A stretch of 64,000 nucleotides of DNA from Acidimicrobiia bacterium (GTDB lineage: Bacteria; Actinomycetota; Acidimicrobiia; Spongiisociales; ZC4RG35): assembly GCA_028285585.1 (NCBI GenBank), contig JANQOU010000006.1, forward strand, positions 593,881-657,880. Reading direction: 5' to 3'. The notes beneath the pieces were generated by a model. That model made no database searches. It worked only from the letters and a program-made list of their open reading frames with translations, and was not told where the DNA came from. The translations under genes and the position numbers were made by a program. This document shows positions 9,364-63,847 of this stretch, piece by piece (position 1 is the stretch's first letter; the number at the start of each line of letters is the position of its first letter).

Positions 9364-10579
9364 ACAATGCCTCGGCCTGTTCCCGGCTCAACTCCTGGCC
9401 AGGGTTGATCCCGTGTCGGGTGACCGCGGCGTTGATGCCGGTCTCTGGGTCGGGCAGCTCGACGGGTGCGTCTGAGCCGCCAAGCAGAGGTATGCCGGCT
9501 TCCAGCATCGACCTGAACGGATAGGCACGGCTCATCCGCTGTTCGCCGAGCCTCTTGATCAGCCAACTCTCCTCCGAAGCCAGGAATGCCGGCTGCACGG
9601 AGCCGACCACTCCCATGTTCGCCATTCGCTCGATTGTGGGGTTGGTGAGGATGGAGGCATGCTCGATGCGGAGCCTCGCCGGCTCGGCCCCCTGGCGGAG
9701 CAACTGGTCGTGCACATCCAAGACCGAGTCGTTGGCCCGGTCGCCGATTGCGTGAATGGCGACCACACCGTCCAGGTCGAGAGAGGCCTGGCCCATCTCG
9801 ACGGCGTGGGCAAAGTCGAGACGGTCGGTCCCTATGGTGGTCGGCTTGTCGGCGAAAGGCTCGTACATCGCCGCGGTGTGCCCGCCCAGGGACCCGTCGG
9901 AGAACTCCTTCCAACCGTGGAACCTGATGCGCCCCTCGGCGCGATCGATCTTCTCCTTGGCCTCAGCCAGCTTGTCAGGGTGGTCGGTGATCACCAAGAC
10001 ATCCATGTCGACGGGGAGGTCTGGGGCGAGCCTGGCCAGGGTCTCCACCTCATCGTCCACACCGCACCAAACGGCGGTGCCGGTGGAGACGATGCCTGTC
10101 ACCGAGCCGATACCCATCTCAGGCAGTCGGGCCAGGGCGGAGAGAAGGTCGTCATCGGAGGGTGGGGCGACGTGGGGCGCAAGAGCGGCCGACACGGTGG
10201 TGATGGCTGTCTCGCGAAGGATGCCGTTGGGACGGCCGTCGGGCAGCCTGTCGAAAGAGCCACCTTCGGGGTCGGACACGAAGGCGTCGAGATCGGCCAT
10301 CTCCATGGCCTTGGTGTTGGCCACGGCTATATGGCCGCAGTACCGGTAGAGGAGGACTGGCCTGTCGGCGATGACATCGTCAATGTCGGCAGCGGTGGGC
10401 AAGCGAAGCTCCCGCACCACCTCGTCGTTGAGTCGCTGGCCGATGACTGGGCCGTCCACCTTCTCGGCCCTCTCCGCCACCATGGCAAAGACGGTGGCCA
10501 GGTCAGGGGCATCCATCAGCTCGAGCCCGTTGACCAGGTTGGCGTACCCGAAAGGGTGGAAATGGTGGTCGTGATACAT
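9344..10579 (-). CDS. amidohydrolase-family metal-dependent hydrolase
   Basis: Start moved to MYHDHHFHPFGY (HxH metal-binding motif at the N-terminus); the upstream part of the long ORF is Arg-rich and lacks coding signal; 4-nt ATGA overlap with preceding gene. Confidence 0.65.
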   Translation of the reverse strand: MYHDHHFHPFGYANLVNGLELMDAPDLATVFAMVAERAEKVDGPVIGQRLNDEVVRELRLPTAADIDDVIADRPVLLYRYCGHIAVANTKAMEMADLDAFVSDPEGGSFDRLPDGRPNGILRETAITTVSAALAPHVAPPSDDDLLSALARLPEMGIGSVTGIVSTGTAVWCGVDDEVETLARLAPDLPVDMDVLVITDHPDKLAEAKEKIDRAEGRIRFHGWKEFSDGSLGGHTAAMYEPFADKPTTIGTDRLDFAHAVEMGQASLDLDGVVAIHAIGDRANDSVLDVHDQLLRQGAEPARLRIEHASILTNPTIERMANMGVVGSVQPAFLASEESWLIKRLGEQRMSRAYPFRSMLEAGIPLLGGSDAPVELPDPETGINAAVTRHGINPGQELSREQAEALFSPPSR

Positions 10580-11385
10580 CAGCGGAGATGCTCCGGCATG
10601 GTGTCCACGATTATGGACCGAAGCTCGTCGTGTGAGTGGCCGTTGCTGGCGACGAATGCCCTGCCGACAAGGGTGTTCACGCCGCCGGCCTCGTCGGTGA
10701 ACTTTCCGCCGGCCTCGGTGACGAGCAGCATGCCGGCAGCGATGTCCCACGGTTTGATTCCGTGATCGCCGCCGTGCTCCCAATAGGCATCGAAGCGGCC
10801 ACGGGCTACCCACGCCAGGTCAAGGGCCGCCGCCCCCAGCCGTCTCGTCCCCTGGGTCTTGGTCATCACTGCCTCGACGACACGCAAGTAGGCGGCGGCG
10901 TGCTCCACGCGGTCGTAGGGAAAGCCGGTAACAACCAGGGAGTCTTGGAGACGGGTGGTATCAGACACCTGGATCGGTTCGCCGTTGACGGTGGCGCCGC
11001 CGCCCTGGATCGCCACGTACTCGTCGTTCTGGGCGACATCGATGATCACTCCGACGAGAGGTTTCCCGTCATCCCACAGTGCGACCGAGACTGCCACTTG
11101 GGGAATGCGGTGGACGAAGTTGACCGTCCCGTCAAGCGGGTCCACCACCCAAACTCGGCCTTCTTTCCAGTCGTCTCCGCCTCTCTCCTCGCCCAGGATG
11201 CCGTCGTCTGGGAAGTGGTCTGCGATCACTGCTCGGATGGCGTCTTCGGCGTCACGGTCGATCTGGGTGACCGGGTCGACGGCGCTCTTCATCTCGGTGT
11301 CGAGTGGCTGGAAGAACCCGGTCTGCACGATGTCGGCGGCGGCGCGGGCGGCTCTCACTGCCACCCATACGTCACCTTCCCACAT
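10579..11385 (-). CDS. inositol monophosphatase family protein (SuhB/ImpA/HisN-like)
   Basis: 268 aa; motifs DPLDGT and WDIAAG characteristic of the IMPase/FIG superfamily. Confidence 0.75.
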   Translation of the reverse strand: MWEGDVWVAVRAARAAADIVQTGFFQPLDTEMKSAVDPVTQIDRDAEDAIRAVIADHFPDDGILGEERGGDDWKEGRVWVVDPLDGTVNFVHRIPQVAVSVALWDDGKPLVGVIIDVAQNDEYVAIQGGGATVNGEPIQVSDTTRLQDSLVVTGFPYDRVEHAAAYLRVVEAVMTKTQGTRRLGAAALDLAWVARGRFDAYWEHGGDHGIKPWDIAAGMLLVTEAGGKFTDEAGGVNTLVGRAFVASNGHSHDELRSIIVDTMPEHLR

Positions 11386-11415
11386 CCCCCGACTCTAAGC
11401 CTCCCACCGACACCC

Positions 11416-11464
11416 GTTGCTATAGCAACGCGTGTCGCTCAGCGCGACGCCTTGCTATAGCAAC
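11416..11464. repeat. double-palindrome element copy A: GTTGCTATAGCAAC - GCGTGTCGCTCAGCGCGACGCC - TTGCTATAGCAAC, in the divergent intergenic region between the IMPase gene and lnt
   Basis: Two perfect 12-14 bp palindromes 36 bp apart flanking a stem-forming core; near-identical copy at 59702-59749. Confidence 0.6.
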
Positions 11465-11503
11465 GAGAGCCGGTCGGTTTCTACGCTGGCCGTTGTGAAA
11501 GCA

Positions 11504-12952
11504 ATGGCCTTGGCCGCCGGCGGTGCGGTTGTATCGGTTCTCGCCTTTCCCCCGTACGGGCCGGGCTGGCTGGTGCTGATCGGGGTGGCACTGCTGATGA
11601 CGGCACTTCGAGGCGCCGGCACGAGGACGCTCGGCCTCGCCGTGGGTGCGATCTACGGGCTGGTGTTCTTCGGCTGGCTGATGTGGTGGCTGGTCGAGCT
11701 CGAGGTGATTGCCCTTGCCTTGGTGCCGCTCCAGGCCGCCTTTCTCGCCGCCTACGGCTGGTGGCTGACCGGGCACAACCATCGCTCCCCGGGAGCCTGG
11801 CTCACCTTGGCGGTTGGCGGCTGGGGCTTCATGGAGCTGATCCGCTACTACGTGCCGTTCGGCGGGTTGGAGTGGGGAGCCGTTGGCTACGCCCTGAGCG
11901 ACCACATCTGGACCCGCTTCCCGGCGGCCGTGGTCGGCACCAGCGGGCTGACGCTGACCGTCGTCCTGATCGGCGCCCTCGTCGCACAGCTCGTGTCGAG
12001 AAAAACCGGACGGGCCACCCTGATTGGTGGAATGGCAGTGGTTGTGGTGCTTGCCGGCTCGCTCGGCTGGTGGGCTTCGGCAGCGGCATTCGCGTTCGTC
12101 CAGCCGGCAACCATCGTCCAAGGCTCGACACCATGTCCTTTCGAGGATTGCCCACCGGACGAGCGTCTCAGCACGTTCCAACAGCATCTAGCCCTCACCC
12201 AGAGCCTCGACTCCGATGCGGGTTTGGTTGTCTGGGCCGAGGGCTCAACCGGCTCTATCAACGCCGATCCGGTCAACAACCCCGAGATCGGCAAAGCCAT
12301 CTCCGAGCAAGCACAGAGACTCGGTTCCCGCTTCGTCGTAGGTGGCGACAGGGTGGTCAGCGACACGGAGTGGATCAATGCCAACGTCTACTTCGATGTC
12401 GACGGGAACATCGTTGGCGAGTATCGCAAACAGCACCCGGTCCCCTTCGGGGAGTACATCCCGCTCCGGCCGCTCTTCGATTGGATCCCGGCGCTCGATC
12501 AGGTCCCGAGAGACATGATCCGCGGCGACGGCCCGGTGCTCTTCGGTGAGATCGGCTCGATCATCTCCTTTGAGGGTGGCTTCTCCCGCTACGCCCTCGG
12601 GGTCCGGCGAGAAGGCGCAAACGTAATCATCGTCAACACCAACGAGGCCTCTTATGGGCCTGATGCGCCCACGGCCGAGCAATTCATCGGCATGACCCGG
12701 ATGCGCGCCGTCGAACTGGGTGTCCCCGTCATCCACGCTGCGGTCACCGGGAAGTCCGTGTTCGTCGAGAGCGACGGCACTCTCGGCGAGTCCACAGGGC
12801 TGGGCACGGCCGAGATCCTCAAGGGTGAATACGGCGCCGAGCTCGCCACTCCCTACACGGTCATCGGTGACATTGGCATGTACTTGGCGGCCCTCGCAGC
12901 CGTTGTCATGTGGCTGGTACCGTCGCACCACCGGTCGACCGAAGAGGAGTAA
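11504..12952 (+). CDS. lnt: apolipoprotein N-acyltransferase
   Basis: N-terminal multi-TM domain followed by a C-terminal carbon-nitrogen hydrolase domain (VVWAEGS ... catalytic E/K/C arrangement); start placed at MALAAGGAVV after the repeat element. Confidence 0.8.
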   Translation: MALAAGGAVVSVLAFPPYGPGWLVLIGVALLMTALRGAGTRTLGLAVGAIYGLVFFGWLMWWLVELEVIALALVPLQAAFLAAYGWWLTGHNHRSPGAWLTLAVGGWGFMELIRYYVPFGGLEWGAVGYALSDHIWTRFPAAVVGTSGLTLTVVLIGALVAQLVSRKTGRATLIGGMAVVVVLAGSLGWWASAAAFAFVQPATIVQGSTPCPFEDCPPDERLSTFQQHLALTQSLDSDAGLVVWAEGSTGSINADPVNNPEIGKAISEQAQRLGSRFVVGGDRVVSDTEWINANVYFDVDGNIVGEYRKQHPVPFGEYIPLRPLFDWIPALDQVPRDMIRGDGPVLFGEIGSIISFEGGFSRYALGVRREGANVIIVNTNEASYGPDAPTAEQFIGMTRMRAVELGVPVIHAAVTGKSVFVESDGTLGESTGLGTAEILKGEYGAELATPYTVIGDIGMYLAALAAVVMWLVPSHHRSTEEE

Positions 12953-16348: not shown

Positions 16349-16471
16349 GCAACCTCAGGTAATACGGCCCAGATACGGGCCCTATAGCCTCAGCTTGAGA
16401 GACGCTCTCACGCGTCCCTTTCAACTGGAGGTCATAGGGCCCAGATACGGTCGCTATTACCTGAGGTTCGC
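16349..16471. repeat. full-length copy of a nested-palindrome dispersed element (about 123 bp; about 42-bp terminal inverted repeats CAACCTCAGGTAATACGGCCCAGATACGGGCCCTATAGCCTC, central palindrome GAGAGACGCTCTC); sits between two convergent gene ends
   Basis: Left end and reverse complement of right end align over about 42 bp; same TIRs at 46159-46272; half-copies at 1951-2000 and 63727-63772. Confidence 0.6.
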
Positions 16472-33898: not shown

Positions 33899-35005
33899 TT
33901 GGCCTTGATCAAGTACGTCGTGTTTCACCCCTGGAAAGCGACGACAACGGTGGTTTTGGGGGTGATCCTGGGGTTGTTCTCCTTCTACGCCTATCAGGTG
34001 AACACGGCGCTCGGTGTTGTCGCCACCGAGTCATTCAACCCGGTGGAGGCCAGACAGGCGATACTTGCTGCACCCGCGGTTGAAGTCACCCCAACCACGA
34101 TTCAGCTCGACTACGACGAGCCGGCTTTCGATGTCAACGAGGATCCGCTGGCGCTCATCGACGAGTCTTATGGAGCCGAGGTCAACCCGGCGGAGATCTT
34201 CCCGACGGCGATCAGTGAGCCGATCCCCGACGATATTTTTGACGCCTACTTGCTGCTCGGCACCGATGCTTCCGGGTTCCTGGCCGATTCGATCATCCTC
34301 GGGCTACAGCCAAGGGCAGGCGGTTCGCCGATCATGGTCAGCCTTCCCCGCGACCTCTGGGTGTGGAACATGTGCCGGCAGGCTTTCAGCCGTCTCAACG
34401 AGGGCCTCGGCGGGTGCAAAGGGGTGGCTTCAGGCCCCGAGCTGATGGCGATCATGGTCGAGGACTACACCGGGATCCCCATCGATCACCTGGCCCGAAT
34501 CAACTTCCAAGGCTTTGCCGGCCTGGTCGATGTGATGGGTGGGATCTCGGTCTGTGTCGACTACCCAACCCGTGATGAGCGATCGCATCTCGACATCCCG
34601 GCCGGCTGCCAGCAGTTGGACGGCGAGCAGGCTCTGGCTTGGGTGAGGTCCCGGTCAACTGAGCAGTTGCAGGGTGAGGAGTGGGTCAGGGTCGCCGGAT
34701 CCGACTTCGTCAGGCAGAAGCGGCAGCAAGACGTCCTGTTCCAGTTGGCCGGCTCGGCGGCACGGGTGTCCTCGCCTGGAGCGCTCACCGACGCTCTGGC
34801 TCACATCGCCAAGACAGTCCGGCTCGATTCCAATTGGACGTTCGGGCAGGCGATCTCGACCGGTTGGAAGTATCGAGGGATCACGAGGTCGGAAGTTCGC
34901 CGGTTCTCGATTCAGACCAGCGGGTACCGCACCGCCCGTGGTGCGGCCGTCCTGCTCTCAGACGCAACTTTCGGCGAGCAGTTGTCGTCGGTCTGGTCCG
35001 GCTGA
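33899..35005 (+). CDS. LytR-CpsA-Psr (LCP) family cell-wall glycopolymer transferase
   Basis: N-terminal TM anchor, LCP domain with LLLGTDA and conserved Arg residues. Confidence 0.7.
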   Translation: MALIKYVVFHPWKATTTVVLGVILGLFSFYAYQVNTALGVVATESFNPVEARQAILAAPAVEVTPTTIQLDYDEPAFDVNEDPLALIDESYGAEVNPAEIFPTAISEPIPDDIFDAYLLLGTDASGFLADSIILGLQPRAGGSPIMVSLPRDLWVWNMCRQAFSRLNEGLGGCKGVASGPELMAIMVEDYTGIPIDHLARINFQGFAGLVDVMGGISVCVDYPTRDERSHLDIPAGCQQLDGEQALAWVRSRSTEQLQGEEWVRVAGSDFVRQKRQQDVLFQLAGSAARVSSPGALTDALAHIAKTVRLDSNWTFGQAISTGWKYRGITRSEVRRFSIQTSGYRTARGAAVLLSDATFGEQLSSVWSG

Positions 35006-35014
35006 CCCCGTCCC

Positions 35015-35069
35015 CCCTTGTGCGTGTGCAGAAAGGAGTACTCCGTACTCCTTTCTGCACACGCAGGGG
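35015..35069. terminator. very long near-perfect hairpin (about 24-bp stem, 3-nt loop) between convergent LCP and purB genes; bidirectional terminator candidate lacking a U-tract
   Basis: CCCCTTGTGCGTGTGCAGAAAGGAGTAC-TCC-GTACTCCTTTCTGCACACGCAGGGG read from sequence. Confidence 0.5.
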
Positions 35070-35094
35070 AGCGCACACAACAACGAGAAGAGGG

Positions 35095-36390
35095 TTAGCC
35101 CAGTTGGCTCAAGCGCTCGAAGACGGGAGCACTGGTGTCGAGGATGCGGCTGAGGTCGAAGCAGGCGTCCAACTCTTCACTTGACAGCTGCACGTTCTCG
35201 TCATCAGCCAGGAGCTGTCGCAGCGCGCCTTCGCCGTTCCACGCTGCCATCGCGTTGCGCTGAACGATGCGATATGCCTCGTCACGGCTCAGGCCACTCT
35301 CGACGAGGGCAAGCAAGACCGCTTGGCTGAAGATGAGCCCGTTGGTCGACTCGATGTTGGCCGCCATCCGATCCTCATCGACCACCAGCCCGTCGACCAG
35401 GCCGGTGAACTTCACCAGCATGTAGTGCAGCACTGTGGAAGCGTCGGCGAGCACGACCCGCTCTGCCGAGGAGTGAGATATGTCTCGTTCATGCCAGAGG
35501 GCGACGTTCTCCAGCCCCACCTGGGCATATCCGCGTAGCAGCCGTGCCATCCCCGTCATCCGCTCCGAGAGGATGGGGTTGCGTTTATGCGGCATCGCCG
35601 AAGATCCCTTCTGACCCTTGCCGAACGACTCCCGCGCTTCGCCAACTTCGGATCTCTGAAGATGACGCACTTCGGTGGCCATGCGCTCGATCGACGCGCC
35701 TACCAGGGCAACAGTCGACAGGTACTGGGCATGGCGATCCCGCGCAGTTACCTGGGTCGACGCCGGTTCCACCGCCAGCCCGAGGCTGGCGCAGACCGAA
35801 GCCTCGATGTCGGTAGAGACATGGGCGTAGGTGCCGACGGCGCCCGAGATCTTGCCCACGGTCACGGCAGTTCGAGCGTCTTCCAGCCGGTGGCGGTCGC
35901 GGTCCAGCTCGAAGGCCCAGCCAGCCAGCTTCAGCCCGAAAGTGGTCGGCTCCGCCCAGATGCCGTGGGTACGGCCGATCATGTAGGTGGAGCGGTGTTC
36001 GACTGCCTTGGCCTTCACCACATCGAAGAGAGCGGCCAGGGCGTCCAACAGGAGGTCGGCTGAATCTCTGAGCAACAGGCCTCCGGCGGTGTCGACGACA
36101 TCGGACGAGGTCAGCCCGTAGTGGATCCACCCGGACGCCGGTGACCCGGTATTGGTGCCGAGCACGTCGACGAACGCAGCCAGGTCGTGGTTGGTGACTG
36201 CCTCGCGTTCTGCGACTTCGTCAGGCGTCGGACAGGCTGCCGAGCGGGTCTGCTCGGCCACTCCCTCAGGAGCTGTGCCCTGGCTCTCGAAAGCCTCTAA
36301 GGCTGCGACCTCAACCGCCTTCCACGACTCGAACTTGTGGGAGTCCGACCAGATGGAGCCCATCTCGGGAAGGGTGTAACGCTCGATCAC
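35095..36390 (-). CDS. purB: adenylosuccinate lyase
   Basis: 431 aa; fumarase/aspartase family signature GSSAMPHKRNP. Confidence 0.9.
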   Translation of the reverse strand: MIERYTLPEMGSIWSDSHKFESWKAVEVAALEAFESQGTAPEGVAEQTRSAACPTPDEVAEREAVTNHDLAAFVDVLGTNTGSPASGWIHYGLTSSDVVDTAGGLLLRDSADLLLDALAALFDVVKAKAVEHRSTYMIGRTHGIWAEPTTFGLKLAGWAFELDRDRHRLEDARTAVTVGKISGAVGTYAHVSTDIEASVCASLGLAVEPASTQVTARDRHAQYLSTVALVGASIERMATEVRHLQRSEVGEARESFGKGQKGSSAMPHKRNPILSERMTGMARLLRGYAQVGLENVALWHERDISHSSAERVVLADASTVLHYMLVKFTGLVDGLVVDEDRMAANIESTNGLIFSQAVLLALVESGLSRDEAYRIVQRNAMAAWNGEGALRQLLADDENVQLSSEELDACFDLSRILDTSAPVFERLSQLG

Positions 36391-46158: not shown

Positions 46159-46272
46159 GCAACCTCAGGTAATGCCGCCCAAATACGGGCCCTATAGCCT
46201 CCGGTTGGGAGAGCGCACGGCCAACTCGAGGCCATAGCTACCAGATACGGTCGCTATTACCTGAGGTTCGCT
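46159..46272. repeat. full-length copy of the nested-palindrome dispersed element (about 114 bp) between glnA and the toxin-antitoxin module
   Basis: TIRs CAACCTCAGGTAATGCCGCCCAAATACGGGCCCTATAGCCTC ... GAGGCCATAGCTACCAGATACGGTCGCTATTACCTGAGGTTCG; core diverged from the copy at 16349. Confidence 0.6.
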
Positions 46273-57910: not shown

Positions 57911-59635
57911 TCACATCCGGGCCGGGACCTCGATGCCGAGCAGATCCAGCAGAGTCGTGAGAGCCCCCAGTGTCCATTGGGAGAGGGCGAGCCATGAGGC
58001 TTGCCTCTCGGCGTCGGGCTCGGAGAGGATGTGATGAACGTCATAGAAGCTGCTGAACCGCATTGCCAGCTCATGTGCGTAGGCGGCGAGGTGGTTGGGG
58101 GCTCTCAGCTCGATCGAGCGGTCGATCACTTCCGGCAGATGGAGAAGGTCGAGCATCAGGCTTCGCTCGCCAGGTGAGATGGGCGGCTGGATCGCTCCGG
58201 GAGCCAGGCCTTGCTCAGCAGCCTTGCGCAAGATCGACTTGATTCGCACCGCCTGGTACTGGACGTATGGGCCGGTCTTGCCTTCGAAAGAGCTGAATCG
58301 ATCGAGGTCGAGCACGTAGTCGGAGGCGCGGTTGTTGATCAGGTCGCCGAACTTGAGTGCGGCGACACCGACCTGAGCGGCGATCTGCTCTCGCTCCTCT
58401 TCCGGGTATTCCTCGGCAAGCTGGGCCTCGTCGAGCCGCTGCTTGGCGGCACCTCGAATCATCTCGATCACGTCGCGAAGCCGGACCACCCCGCCTTCAC
58501 GAGTCTTGAAGGGCTTGCCGTCACTGCCGTTCATCGTCCCGAAATGGATGTGCTCCAAAGCAACCGACTCGGGGGCGATACCCGCCTTGCGAGCAGCCCG
58601 GAACACCTGCTCGAAGTGATCGCCCTGACGGTGGTCCACTACGTAGAGGACCAGATCGACATCGAGGTCCTCGACACGCATCTCCACCGTGGCCAGGTCC
58701 GTCGTGGAGTAGAGGAAGCCGCCGGCTCGGCTCTTCAGGATCAATGGCGGCCACTCCCTGTTGTCGTCGGGCTGTCCCACGGGCACGACCAAGGCCCCGT
58801 CAGACTCGACGGCCACGCCTTCACCCTCCAGCCTGCGGGTCAGGGGATCCAGACGATCGTGCACGTCCGACTCCCCGTACCAGAGGTCGAAGGCGACTCC
58901 GAGCGCAGCGAAGTCCTGACGCTGGCTCGACTCAGATACTGCCTTCATCTGCCGCCAGATCTCGAGGCTCTCAGCGTCTTCGTGCTGGAGCCGGACAGTG
59001 GCGGCGCGGGCGGCATCGGCAAACTCCTGGTCGGTGGTGGCGCGCGCAGATGCTTCCGGGTAGATCCGCTGCAAGTCGTCGAGAGTGATCGCAGCGGGGT
59101 CGAGCCCCTCTTCTTTCAGGACCGAGATGAGCAGGCCCATCTGGAAGCCCCAATCTCCGAAGTGGGGGTCTCGTATGACCTTGTGGCCGGCGAAGTGGAA
59201 CAACCTCGCCAGGGAGTCGCCGATGATCGTGGCTCGAAGGTGGCCGACGTGCATCGCCTTGGCGACGTTGGGACCGGCGTAGTCGACCAAGACGTTCAAC
59301 GGCTCCCGGGTGCCGGCGTATCCGAGACGGTCGTCGCCGGCACTCGTCTCGGCCCATGTGGCGAGAGCGGTGTCTTCGAGGTTGATGTTGATGAAGCCGG
59401 GGCCGGCAACATCAGCGATCGCTATGTCCGGATGAGCCGCGAGGCTTGCAGCGACCTGATCGGCGATTTCGCGTGGTGATCGCCTGGCGGCCTTGGCCGC
59501 TTCCATGGCGCCGTTGCATTGGAACTGGGCCAGCTCGGGTCGTTGTGACGGCACCACCTCGCCAAGGGCTTGGTCGAGCCCGAGCTCGGCGAACGCGGCT
59601 CCGGCGACCTCGGACAGATGCGACTGCAACGACAT
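57911..59635 (-). CDS. argS: arginine--tRNA ligase
   Basis: 574 aa; HVGHLRATIIGD (HIGH-class motif), C-terminal DALR anticodon-binding domain. Confidence 0.9.
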   Translation of the reverse strand: MSLQSHLSEVAGAAFAELGLDQALGEVVPSQRPELAQFQCNGAMEAAKAARRSPREIADQVAASLAAHPDIAIADVAGPGFININLEDTALATWAETSAGDDRLGYAGTREPLNVLVDYAGPNVAKAMHVGHLRATIIGDSLARLFHFAGHKVIRDPHFGDWGFQMGLLISVLKEEGLDPAAITLDDLQRIYPEASARATTDQEFADAARAATVRLQHEDAESLEIWRQMKAVSESSQRQDFAALGVAFDLWYGESDVHDRLDPLTRRLEGEGVAVESDGALVVPVGQPDDNREWPPLILKSRAGGFLYSTTDLATVEMRVEDLDVDLVLYVVDHRQGDHFEQVFRAARKAGIAPESVALEHIHFGTMNGSDGKPFKTREGGVVRLRDVIEMIRGAAKQRLDEAQLAEEYPEEEREQIAAQVGVAALKFGDLINNRASDYVLDLDRFSSFEGKTGPYVQYQAVRIKSILRKAAEQGLAPGAIQPPISPGERSLMLDLLHLPEVIDRSIELRAPNHLAAYAHELAMRFSSFYDVHHILSEPDAERQASWLALSQWTLGALTTLLDLLGIEVPARM

Positions 59636-59701
59636 CGTCGCGAGGTTAGAACCTGACTTGGCGATGTTTGCCGTGCACAGCGTCGCGCTGACCGCGACCC
59701 C

Positions 59702-59749
59702 TTGCTATAGCAACCCGTGTCGCTCAGCGCGACGGGTTGCTATAGCAAG
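59702..59749. repeat. double-palindrome element copy B: TTGCTATAGCAAC - CCGTGTCGCTCAGCGCGACGGG - TTGCTATAGCAAG, about 65-115 bp upstream of argS and just downstream of the E1 gene
   Basis: same architecture as 11416-11464 with compensatory GCGT/ACGC to CCGT/ACGG change in the core stem. Confidence 0.6.
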
Positions 59750-59758
59750 GAGGGTCGG

Positions 59759-61780
59759 TCAGTACTTGGCCAGCTCGAGGGCTCGCTCGACGATCGACTC
59801 GGGTGTCGGGTAGAGGGCGTGCTCCAGCGAGCCCGCGTATGGCATCAGGGGAACGTCGGGCAGCCCGTACCTCTTGACCGGGGCGTCGAGCCATTCGAAG
59901 GTCTTGTCGGCGATCTGAGCGGCGATCTCCGCGCCGTACCCGACGAACTCGTTGTCCTCGTGGAGCACGAGCGCCCGGGACGTCTTCTTGACTGAGCGCT
60001 CGATGGTCGGCCAGTCCAGCGGCTTCAGGGAACGGAGGTCGATGACCTCCGGGCTGACACCCAGCTCTTCGAGGATGGGCACCGCTTCCATGGCGAAGTG
60101 GGCCATCGCCCCGTAGGCGACGATGGTCAGGTCATCACCCAGATGGCGAAGGGCAGCCTTGCCCAGCGGCACTCGGTGCTCACCGTCCGGGAAGGGCCCC
60201 TTTGCCAACCGGTAGAGTTTCTTCGGTTCGATGAACAGCACCGGGTCGGGATCTTCGACCGCGGTGTGCAGCAGGCCTTTGACGTCGGCAGGGGTCGACG
60301 GGATCACAACCTTCAGCCCTGGGACGTGGGCGTAGAAGGCTTCTATCGATTGCGAGTGGTACTGAGCACCATGTATCCCGGCCCCGTAGGGGGTGCGTAT
60401 GACGATGGGGCAGTTCCAGCGCCCGTCGCTGCGATAGCTGATCCTCGCCGCTTCGGAGACGATCTGGTCGAAGGCGGGGTGGATGTAATCGGCGAACTGA
60501 ATCTCGGGGATCACCTTGTATCCCGTCGCCGCCATCCCAATGGCACAGCCGATGATGGACGACTCGGCGATGGGTGTGTTGAAGCATCTCTTCGACCCGA
60601 ATCGCTCGGTCAGGTCTTGGGTTGCTTTGAAGACGCCACCCTTGCGCCGGGCGACGTCTTCACCGAACACCACGGTGTCGTCGTGCGCCTCCATCACCTC
60701 ATGGAGTGATCGGTTGATCGCCGTGATGAGGTTCACCCTCTCCCCGGCCGGAACCGGCTCCGGGGTAGTGGATGCCTCGCCGACCTCGATCAGCCGCGCA
60801 TATACATGTGAGGTGGGCTCGTCGGGGTCGGGTGACGTCTCGGCGGCTTCCACTGCTTTGGCCAGCGTCGCCACGACTTCTTCGTCGAGGTCGGTCTCCT
60901 GTTTCTCGGTGAGCAGCCGCTGCTCGATCAGGTACTGGCGCAGCTTCGCCAGCGGGTCTCTCTTGCGCCAGGTCTCGACCTCTTCCTGGGTTCGGTAGAG
61001 GGTGTCGTTGTCGTCAGAGGTGTGGGCGTAGTAGCGATAGGTCTCGGCCTCGATGAGCGTTGGGCCTTCACCCGATCGTGCCCGGCGCACCGCCGTTTGC
61101 ATCGTTTCCAGGACCTCGAAGGGGTCGTTGCCGTCGATGAGATGGCCGGGGAAGCCGTAGCCCTGCGCCCGGTCGGAGATTTGGCCAGCAACTCCTTCAC
61201 TCGTCGGGACCGAGATGGCGTACTGGTTGTTCTCGATGACGAAGATGAGGGGCAGGTCGTGAATGCCGGCCCAGTTCATCGCCTCGTGCCAGTCGCCTTC
61301 CGAAGTGGCCCCTTCTCCGCCGTAGACGACGGTCACGGCGTCGGTCTCACCGAATTTGAGGCCGTGGGCGATGCCGGCGGCGTGTGGGAACTGGGTGCCG
61401 ATGACGGAGGACTGAGTGAACACTCGGCGGTCGGGGTCTGACCAGTGGCTGGGCAGCTGGCGGCCCCCCGACATCGGATCTTCCTTCTTGGCGAACACCC
61501 CCAGGAAGATCTCTCTCGGGTCGAACCCCCAGGCCAAGGCAACACCCATGTCGCGGTAGTAGGGGAGAAGCCAGTCCTTGTCTCTGTCCAAGGCGAACAC
61601 AGAAGCAACCTGAATCGCCTCGTGTCCAGACGCCCCGAGCACGAACGCGGCGCGGCCTTGCCGCTGGAGCGCCCACATCCTGTCGTCGACTCGGCGGGCC
61701 ATCAGCATCAGCCGGTACATCTCGACGACTTCGGTGTCGTCCAGCCCTAGGCGGCGGTGATCTGGGGTCTGCTCGAGCAT
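59759..61780 (-). CDS. 2-oxoacid dehydrogenase E1 component, fused alpha-beta subunits (TPP-dependent)
   Basis: 673 aa; N-terminal alpha half with TPP-binding GDG-x(n)-NN region (YGGEGATSEGDWHEAMNWA...IENNQYAIS), C-terminal beta/transketolase-like half. Confidence 0.85.
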   Translation of the reverse strand: MLEQTPDHRRLGLDDTEVVEMYRLMLMARRVDDRMWALQRQGRAAFVLGASGHEAIQVASVFALDRDKDWLLPYYRDMGVALAWGFDPREIFLGVFAKKEDPMSGGRQLPSHWSDPDRRVFTQSSVIGTQFPHAAGIAHGLKFGETDAVTVVYGGEGATSEGDWHEAMNWAGIHDLPLIFVIENNQYAISVPTSEGVAGQISDRAQGYGFPGHLIDGNDPFEVLETMQTAVRRARSGEGPTLIEAETYRYYAHTSDDNDTLYRTQEEVETWRKRDPLAKLRQYLIEQRLLTEKQETDLDEEVVATLAKAVEAAETSPDPDEPTSHVYARLIEVGEASTTPEPVPAGERVNLITAINRSLHEVMEAHDDTVVFGEDVARRKGGVFKATQDLTERFGSKRCFNTPIAESSIIGCAIGMAATGYKVIPEIQFADYIHPAFDQIVSEAARISYRSDGRWNCPIVIRTPYGAGIHGAQYHSQSIEAFYAHVPGLKVVIPSTPADVKGLLHTAVEDPDPVLFIEPKKLYRLAKGPFPDGEHRVPLGKAALRHLGDDLTIVAYGAMAHFAMEAVPILEELGVSPEVIDLRSLKPLDWPTIERSVKKTSRALVLHEDNEFVGYGAEIAAQIADKTFEWLDAPVKRYGLPDVPLMPYAGSLEHALYPTPESIVERALELAKY

Positions 61781-63712: not shown

Positions 63713-63726
63713 CCCCCCAACCGCGT

Positions 63727-63772
63727 ACCTCAGGTAATACCGCCCGTATCTGGGCCCTATAACCTCAGGAAC
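63727..63772. repeat. half-copy of the nested-palindrome dispersed element (left TIR only)
   Basis: TACCTCAGGTAATACCGCCCGTATCTGGGCCCTATAACCTCAGG matches the left TIR of the copies at 16349 and 46159. Confidence 0.5.
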
Positions 63773-63847
63773 GAGGCGAGGTGCCGGGTTGCGCGCCCGG
63801 CGACCCCCTTTCGCAATCTCACCGCTTGTTCTGGCACCATCCCGCAG

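Follow-up and report, generated by a model that had tools for sequence, protein, structure and literature searches.

Two copies of a paired palindrome in the window

The window, by which we mean the whole 64,000-nt stretch of Acidimicrobiia DNA analyzed here, harbors two copies of a short repeat, designated A and B. Acidimicrobiia are abundant in soil and water, and their known genomes are mostly metagenome-assembled; homologues of ArgS and of the IMPase assign the window to this class. Copy A occupies the divergent intergenic region between an inositol-monophosphatase-family (IMPase) gene and lnt, where it lies between two divergent -10-like boxes. Copy B is found between argS and a fused PDH-E1 alpha/beta gene. 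The features of both sites are listed below, a dot marking those to which no strand is assigned.

10579–11385, strand -: IMPase gene flanking copy A; conserved -10-like TAGAGT at 11392–11397, outside the element
11406–11478, strand.: copy A, whole repeat with outer arms (ACCGAC...GTCGGT), 86% identical to 59691–59763
11417–11428, strand.: copy A, first 12-nt palindrome TTGCTATAGCAA, the left hairpin arm
11429–11451, strand.: copy A, 23-nt core CGCGTGTCGCTCAGCGCGACGCC, the distal stem and loop with an internal mismatch
11452–11463, strand.: copy A, second 12-nt palindrome, the right arm
11495–12952, strand +: lnt (apolipoprotein N-acyltransferase), likely start GTG 11495; TANNNT-like TACGCT at 11482–11487
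57911–59635, strand -: argS; -10-like TAACCT at 59643–59648, about 45 nt away from the element and 7 nt ahead of the ATG
59674–59701, strand.: extra diverged core-like hairpin GTCGCGCTGACCGCGAC adjoining copy B, a 62% copy
59691–59763, strand.: copy B, whole repeat, with the argS promoter region on one side and the stop codon of the fused PDH-E1 gene on the other
59702–59713, strand.: copy B, first palindrome
59714–59736, strand.: copy B, 23-nt core CCCGTGTCGCTCAGCGCGACGGG, forming a perfect 17-bp stem together with the palindromes
59737–59748, strand.: copy B, second palindrome
59759–61780, strand -: fused PDH-E1 alpha/beta gene, its stop codon abutting copy B

The GTG start codon of lnt and its -10 box are likely assignments; lnt orthologues are 489–496 aa long. 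TAGAGT upstream of the IMPase gene is kept in four related loci (L149, L151, L152 and L153) and TAACCT upstream of argS, also outside the element, in three (L144, L146 and L147), and both may be read as promoter boxes. TANNNT boxes are located 6–7 nt upstream of the argS, IMPase and lnt starts (59643–59648, 11392–11397 and 11482–11487, respectively), a position that, with the argS and IMPase boxes kept in relatives, suggests leaderless or near-leaderless transcripts. Consensus scans for promoters and terminators gave no matches at either site. Copy B had been placed at a promoter by the initial sequence-only reading; it does lie upstream of argS, but also only 6 nt from its element edge to the stop codon of the PDH-E1 gene.

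Exactly four matches to TTGCTATAGCAA occur in the window (11417–11428, 11452–11463, 59702–59713 and 59737–59748), and the count is still four when up to two mismatches are permitted. Shuffled sequences gave an expectation of 0.26, and none of 100 shuffles reached four matches. They form two pairs with a 23-nt spacer each (11417–11463 and 59702–59748), confirming that the same double-palindrome architecture recurs at both sites. The flanks, described earlier as similar over a short distance, are so over a wider one, with 86% identity across 73 nt (11406–11478 against 59691–59763). As for the lengths first proposed, the 12-mer stands but the 22-nt core does not: the spacer measures 23 nt, the core string quoted for it has 19 nt, and the palindrome extends to 14 bp only in the first palindrome of copy A. 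Copies A and B contain the same GTGTCGCTCAGCGCGACG core, and the central 18 nt of the 23-nt spacer are identical. The core is flanked by GCGT/ACGC in copy A and by CCGT/ACGG in copy B, a difference suspected from the outset to be compensatory; it is indeed a swap of G:C to C:G at one paired position (columns 24/44 of alignment A1, described below). Site B additionally contains a core-like hairpin (59681–59698) with 15 of 18 matches to the core on the opposite strand, giving the order palindrome-core-palindrome-core'.

Since TTGCTATAGCAA is its own reverse complement, its two copies pair with each other. Each site folds into a single long hairpin on either strand, with energies of -42 to -58 kcal/mol compared to about -22 to -30 kcal/mol for shuffled sequences. 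Copy A reaches -42.4 kcal/mol on the plus and -55.7 kcal/mol on the minus strand (z-scores of -7.0 and -8.8), and copy B -58.2 and -57.5 kcal/mol (z-scores near -9). What had been perceived as a stem core with a palindrome on either side is one imperfect palindrome, made up of proximal arms, a distal stem and a loop. Covariance model R1 scores copy A at 67.6 bits and copy B at 61.6 bits, and with filters off it detects no degenerate further copies in the 64-kb window, which holds two.

Other palindromic sequences were noticed in the window. A second, larger dispersed repeat family (AACCTCAGGTAATA...GGGCCCTATAGCCTC // GAGG.CATAG...TATTACCTGAGGTT), with arms of about 48 nt that are 73% complementary, is found at 16350–16470 and 46161–46268 and partially at 63719–63777 and 1948–2010, which suggests that at least two repeat families of this general kind exist in the genome. 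A perfect 21-bp hairpin, TGCGTGTGCAGAAAGGAGTAC-TCC-GTACTCCTTTCTGCACACGCA, is located at 35015–35071 between convergent open reading frames (33899–35005, plus strand; 35095–36390, minus strand). We considered it as a degenerate copy of the element (14.6 bits with R1) and rejected it as an unrelated hairpin; it lacks a U-tract and has the appearance of a unique hairpin at a gene end.

A sharply bounded repeat family in Acidimicrobiia

A first scan, covering one genome per prokaryotic species, detected the architecture of 12-mer, exactly 23 nt and 12-mer in three GTDB species-representative Acidimicrobiia metagenome-assembled genomes (MAGs; loci L007, L009, L014, L016, L017 and L021). The cores of these three differ from that of the window, yet they form hairpins as well. 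A metagenome scan yielded at least 120 matching loci, about 95 of which, among the matches listed, are high-GC members of one family. The palindrome pair can be written in short form as GCTATAGCAA-N25-GCTATAGCAA. After de-duplication we retained at least 94 distinct copies from Acidimicrobiia in public genomes and metagenomes, and the further copies sought beyond the window therefore exist in both MAGs and metagenomes. The family pattern had no match in the viral contigs searched. Related MAG and metagenome contigs of 30–45 kb contain 1–2 copies each, and the element is found both ways round.

The copies align without gaps (alignment A1), with the consensus GGCG TTGCTATAGCAA GAGGTCGTGGwTTCCGAGACCTG (A/T)TGCTATAGCAA CGCC. 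The outline GGCG-TTGCTATAGCAA...(A/T)TGCTATAGCAA-CGCC with its 23-nt spacer is present in 93 of 94 copies among the matches listed. Information content is high from position -4 to +51 and approximately zero beyond GGCG...CGCC, and the repeat unit is a sharply bounded 55-mer with unique flanks. No direct-repeat signal of a target-site duplication was found at any boundary offset tested (k = 2–5), and the family alignment displays no general extension of the palindrome into the flanks. As the search pattern required the 12-mer, its invariance is partly a product of collection; copies that were found only as second matches in a locus include single mismatches in the 12-mer (L017, L026 and L107). 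Dozens of copies are identical over all 47–55 nt, non-palindromic core included, despite unrelated flanks. Palindromes occur in pairs: the matches listed comprise 206 paired palindromes, and a genuinely lone one was found at just one locus (L144/L145) in 0.92 Mb of high-GC sequence.

As single-stranded DNA or RNA, the 55-nt unit folds into a single stem of about 26 bp that is interrupted internally by two conserved mismatches. Across the 26 stem positions, 84.6–85.6% of the cells in A1 are paired, and conserved non-pairs are found at columns 22/46, 23/45 and 29/39, that is, at the palindrome-core junction and in mid-core. The core sequence is lineage-specific while its pairing is maintained. 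Among 12 representative core variants, 10 of 26 pairs show changes on both sides; the covariation score of 0.19, compared to 0.097 in shuffled alignments, was reached in none of 500 shuffles and all slid controls were lower. Folding z-scores range from -5.7 to -10.3 across the family. Together with the z-scores of -7 to -9 in the window, the covariation bears out the early suggestion that the stem is under selection.

The element appears in neither the RNA family database nor the literature that we could search. No relevant family was found in Rfam 15, either for the window at gathering thresholds or in E-value scans of site A and four loci; the matches below threshold are miRNA precursors, leader terminators and other generic hairpin families. 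Neither the 12-mer nor the 10-mer led to a relevant paper in the searchable literature, where the matches consisted of unrelated eukaryotic primers and the C. elegans RFX X-box, which we regard as a coincidence. The same searches returned no description of intergenic repeats or transcript-end signals in Acidimicrobiia. A 16-bp palindrome, ACTTGCTATAGCAAGT, was encountered during the scans in 6–8 irregularly spaced copies within AT-rich intergenic islands of about 500 nt (L020 5600–6100, L005 3400–3510 and L006 120–340), in a Pseudonocardiaceae MAG and a high-GC contig labelled Melainabacteria. These arrays look like operator or iteron arrays, with an architecture unlike that of the Acidimicrobiia element, and their neighboring genes are uninformative.

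Copies of the element abut stop codons

The surrounding genomic context was determined by calling the coding strand on either side from open frames and from GC3 (G+C at third codon positions). Among the matches listed, 57 copies were classifiable: 33 lie between convergent genes (58%), 20 between tandem genes and 4 between divergent genes. Element orientation in tandem contexts shows no bias relative to transcription (11 against 9 among the matches listed). Neighbors confirmed with Pfam are cofE facing ugd, a histidine phosphatase gene facing uppS, dnaE facing an MFS transporter gene, and a DAHP synthase gene followed by OsmC; others are sufB, ABC-F, acyl-CoA dehydrogenase and NADH-dehydrogenase subunit genes. 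The catalogue of adjoining genes consists of unrelated housekeeping genes with no function in common.

The association with gene ends is tight. Across the 109 element-facing gene ends among the matches listed, the median distance from the stop codon to the GGCG edge is 2 nt, with 63 stops falling within ±2 nt and 90 within 10 nt of it; in five cases the TAG of the palindrome itself serves as the stop codon. In Acidimicrobiia loci devoid of the element (gene tables of L144–L165), convergent genes are usually 0–10 nt apart or overlapping, with a median gap of about 7 nt over 30 pairs. Gaps this short leave no room for any terminator at most convergent junctions, and a 55-nt insert there necessarily abuts both stops. 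The excess of convergent sites over the larger, promoter-bearing spacers points to an insertion preference, to selection against hairpins in promoters or to a benefit at gene ends.

Two loci depart from this simple arrangement. In L009 (3164–4160), an open reading frame of 317 aa for a ferredoxin/molybdopterin-Fe4S4 protein, resembling the N-terminus of formate dehydrogenase or NuoG, stops at the TAG in the first palindrome of the element, and a new open reading frame begins immediately beyond this copy. A longer gene may have been split or truncated by the element. In L130 (2840–2940), the sequence to the right of the element repeats, in inverted orientation, the ABC-F 3' end that is found left of the element in L080 (1870–1950); here, the palindrome was extended into the flank, perhaps by template switching at the hairpin.

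Presence of the element differs between relatives

Gene order around both window sites is kept in relatives, which allowed orthologous spacers to be compared. In relatives with 73% ArgS identity (L146 and L147), the element is absent and argS is preceded by unrelated spacers of 139 and 48 nt. Likewise, the IMPase-lnt spacer of relatives at 78–79% identity measures 47–73 nt and lacks the element. The expectation that it would be conserved upstream of lnt or argS was thus not borne out at 73–79% protein identity. In two of these relatives (L149 and L152, 3950–3975; 78–79% identity), the position orthologous to copy A carries GGCGTTGTCAGCAACCG, possibly what is left of a collapsed soil-type element (GGCG-TTG...GCAA-C).

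Closer relatives do carry related sequences. At the argS site of a 97% relative (L144/L145), the spacer is 35 nt shorter and contains a single palindrome with complementary arms. The L144 allele reads GACCGACCCCGG-TTGCTATAGCAA-CGGGTCGCGGTC, after which the core-like hairpin of the window is retained. This singlet is the orthologue of copy B and has the form a-palindrome-a^c. In a near-identical strain, the contigs of two independent assemblies end inside the core/hairpin of copy A, from which it follows that the element is present in that strain and breaks assemblies.

Two metagenome lineages (L026 and L064) carry the element downstream of sufB; relatives at 87–96% lack it there and have no copy within 7–21 kb. 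We looked for a clean pair of filled and empty sites through SufB orthologues and found none; synteny downstream of sufB is not conserved. Overall, close strains differ in the element, and more distant relatives lack it.

A probable REPIN-like repeat retained at gene ends

The element is multi-copy, sharply delimited, extragenic, structured, biased towards gene ends and stop codons, and limited to certain lineages. We consider it reasonably probable that the two window sites are copies of an Acidimicrobiia dispersed repeat of the REPIN/REP type, retained as a hairpin at gene ends, and the element is probably useful there as a bidirectional RNA hairpin. The REP doublet would correspond to the two palindromic heads of 12 nt, which carry GGCG/CGCC as inverted feet and enclose a 23-nt spacer that forms an imperfect hairpin. 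Multiplication would proceed by copy-and-paste through a hairpin intermediate, with the enzyme acting in trans; because there is no target-site duplication, an HUH/Y1 (RAYT-like) transposase is the obvious candidate. Copies would then survive, or be favored, at the 3' ends of genes, where the RNA hairpin could act as a two-way barrier at transcript ends by termination or by 3'-end protection. Copy B would insulate the argS promoter from read-through out of the PDH-E1 gene, and copy A would be a rare copy tolerated between two divergent promoters. The a-palindrome-a^c form of the L144 allele is as expected from central excision of a REP doublet.

No open reading frame of the RAYT-like or IS200/IS605 type was found in 0.92 Mb (window and loci) when 7,625 ORFs were searched with phmmer --max using the PDB sequences 4ER8 and 2A6M as queries. 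The best matches, which adjoin elements, are GNAT acetyltransferases rather than RAYTs. Terminator activity of the element is putative: there is no U-tract on either side, a simple scan calls no terminator-like site, and the flanks display only a weak T enrichment that is explicable by reverse-strand stop codons. In addition, the same 12-mer accompanies unrelated cores, a conservation above that of usual REP heads. This fits a host factor at least equally well and could point to one instead of a transposase.

A possible, though fairly unlikely, explanation that is compatible with the REPIN reading is a conserved terminator evolved by the host, the Acidimicrobiia counterpart of the TRIT motif (Tuberculosis Rho-independent terminator), in which a bidirectional hairpin operates without a U-tract. 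A dedicated protein would read the 12-bp segment, as dsRNA or DNA, and stop or release RNA polymerase, while selection and gene conversion, not transposition, would keep the copies alike. The abutting stops (median 2 nt) agree with this explanation, TRIT being similarly narrow in its position (PMC3152330), and so do the convergent location of 58% of classifiable copies among the matches listed, the lack of orientation bias, the 12-mer shared by lineages with different cores and the failure to find a transposase in 0.92 Mb. On the other hand, dozens of copies identical over 47–55 nt in unrelated flanks are more easily explained by recent copying. Presence and absence also differ between close relatives, divergent promoter regions (that of copy A included) hold copies as well, and there is no U-tract.

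A related idea, to which we would give only a small chance, is that a host protein binds the two 12-bp palindromes, 35 bp apart, on DNA or on a dsRNA stem, and together with the hairpin constitutes a sequence-specific, factor-dependent system of bidirectional termination or insulation. If true, such a system would serve genomes that have almost no space between convergent genes and no U-tract terminators. In a variant of this idea, an enzyme unrelated to RAYTs would mobilize the repeat.

The element was originally suggested to be a binding site for two regulator dimers or a small structured element co-opted at promoters. We regard as very unlikely a tandem operator in which two transcription-factor dimers occupy the 12-bp palindromes, with centres 35 bp apart, and control lnt/IMPase and argS. 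Perfect palindromes at a fixed spacing would suit it, as would the position of copy A exactly between two divergent -10-like boxes and the occurrence of a related 16-bp palindrome in the operator-like arrays of the Pseudonocardiaceae MAG. Most family members, however, are found between convergent stops, where there is no promoter (33 of 57 convergent against 4 divergent), and single sites are essentially absent. Moreover, the spacer is conserved within genomes too and covaries as a stem, the neighboring genes share no functional theme, and relatives do not conserve the element upstream of argS or lnt. For the window, this removes the suggestion of a common lnt/argS regulon.

Equally improbable is a classical MITE, derived by deletion from an insertion sequence of the DDE type and having the GGCG and 12-mer ends as terminal inverted repeats. 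While inverted-repeat termini of about 16 nt, a short unit of uniform length and dispersed copies are all in keeping with a MITE, target-site duplications are absent at every offset tested (k = 2–5), 55 nt is below the usual MITE size and viral contigs yielded no match to the family pattern. A parent insertion sequence or transposase was also not seen in 0.92 Mb, in which the search concerned Y1 families only. Finally, a chance local duplication or relic peculiar to this genome, which the mere two copies in the 64-kb window might have suggested, has practically no probability left and is refuted by the existence of the family, given that the same architecture is found in three Acidimicrobiia MAGs and at least 120 metagenome stretches, most of them high-GC family members, and that shuffles never reached the observed count.

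Several uses follow from the family. It can readily serve to mark gene ends and to type strains in Acidimicrobiia genomes, and it explains assembly breaks, with contigs ending inside the hairpin. A RAYT-like or other enzyme, if found, would extend REPIN-type systems to Acidimicrobiia.

Comparison with known systems

REPINs consist of two inverted REPs and a hairpin-forming spacer of variable sequence, their doublets being conserved and over-represented relative to singlets (PMC3116915, PMC3337134). Central excision of a REP doublet leaves a long palindromic singlet, a-palindrome-a^c (PMC3337134). The Acidimicrobiia element resembles REPINs in its inverted short palindromic heads and in a spacer of variable sequence that invariably folds into a hairpin; it is likewise extragenic, with multiple copies across related MAGs and metagenomes, without target-site duplication and with doublets far exceeding singlets, and the long palindromic singlet of the 97% relative matches central excision. 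It differs in its actinobacterial host class, in the perfect palindromy of its 12-nt heads and in its small unit size of 55 nt. The 0.92 Mb searched yielded no RAYT, the association of the element with stop codons is much tighter, and lineages with unrelated spacers have the same head sequence.

Conserved words repeated as hairpin arms are also known from DNA uptake sequences. Paired DUS of Neisseria and USS of Pasteurellaceae form terminator hairpins; their singles are abundant, also inside genes, and their spacing is variable. The likeness to the Acidimicrobiia element lies in a conserved word of 10–12 nt that occurs twice, as hairpin arms, downstream of genes. In contrast, singles of the Acidimicrobiia element are nearly absent and its spacing is fixed at 23 nt. 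Canonical intrinsic terminators share with it a stable GC-containing hairpin directly after stops, often between convergent genes, but the element has no U-tract on either side, and its stem is far longer and its sequence far more conserved than termination needs.

Among actinobacterial hairpins, TRIT of Mycobacterium is described as having 147 palindromic, bidirectional and sequence-conserved copies (PMC3152330). TRIT is narrowly distributed around stop codons, a dsRNA-binding factor has been proposed by its authors, and it was reported to be restricted to Mycobacterium (PMC3152330). The Acidimicrobiia element is similarly conserved in sequence and structure, palindromic and hence bidirectional, and narrowly placed at stop codons; a number of about 100 copies per genome would also be similar, the Acidimicrobiia figure being a rough extrapolation from 1–2 copies per 30–45 kb contig. 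In most cases TRIT overlaps the coding sequence at its end (around -8), whereas the Acidimicrobiia element starts a median of 2 nt after the stop, and the doublet-plus-spacer architecture is not described for TRIT. Comparing the two by description, and given a host in Acidimicrobiia, we treat the element as an analogue of TRIT and not as a member. Following TRIT, it would be a second case in actinobacteria in which a hairpin at stop codons is conserved in sequence and lacks a U-tract, and as such bears on how hairpins of this kind end transcripts. In summary, the Acidimicrobiia element is a new example of the familiar REP/REPIN-like and TRIT-like palindromic repeats, distinguished by its perfect-palindrome head, its fixed 23-nt spacer, its tight fit between the stops of compact genomes and the conservation of its head across lineages.
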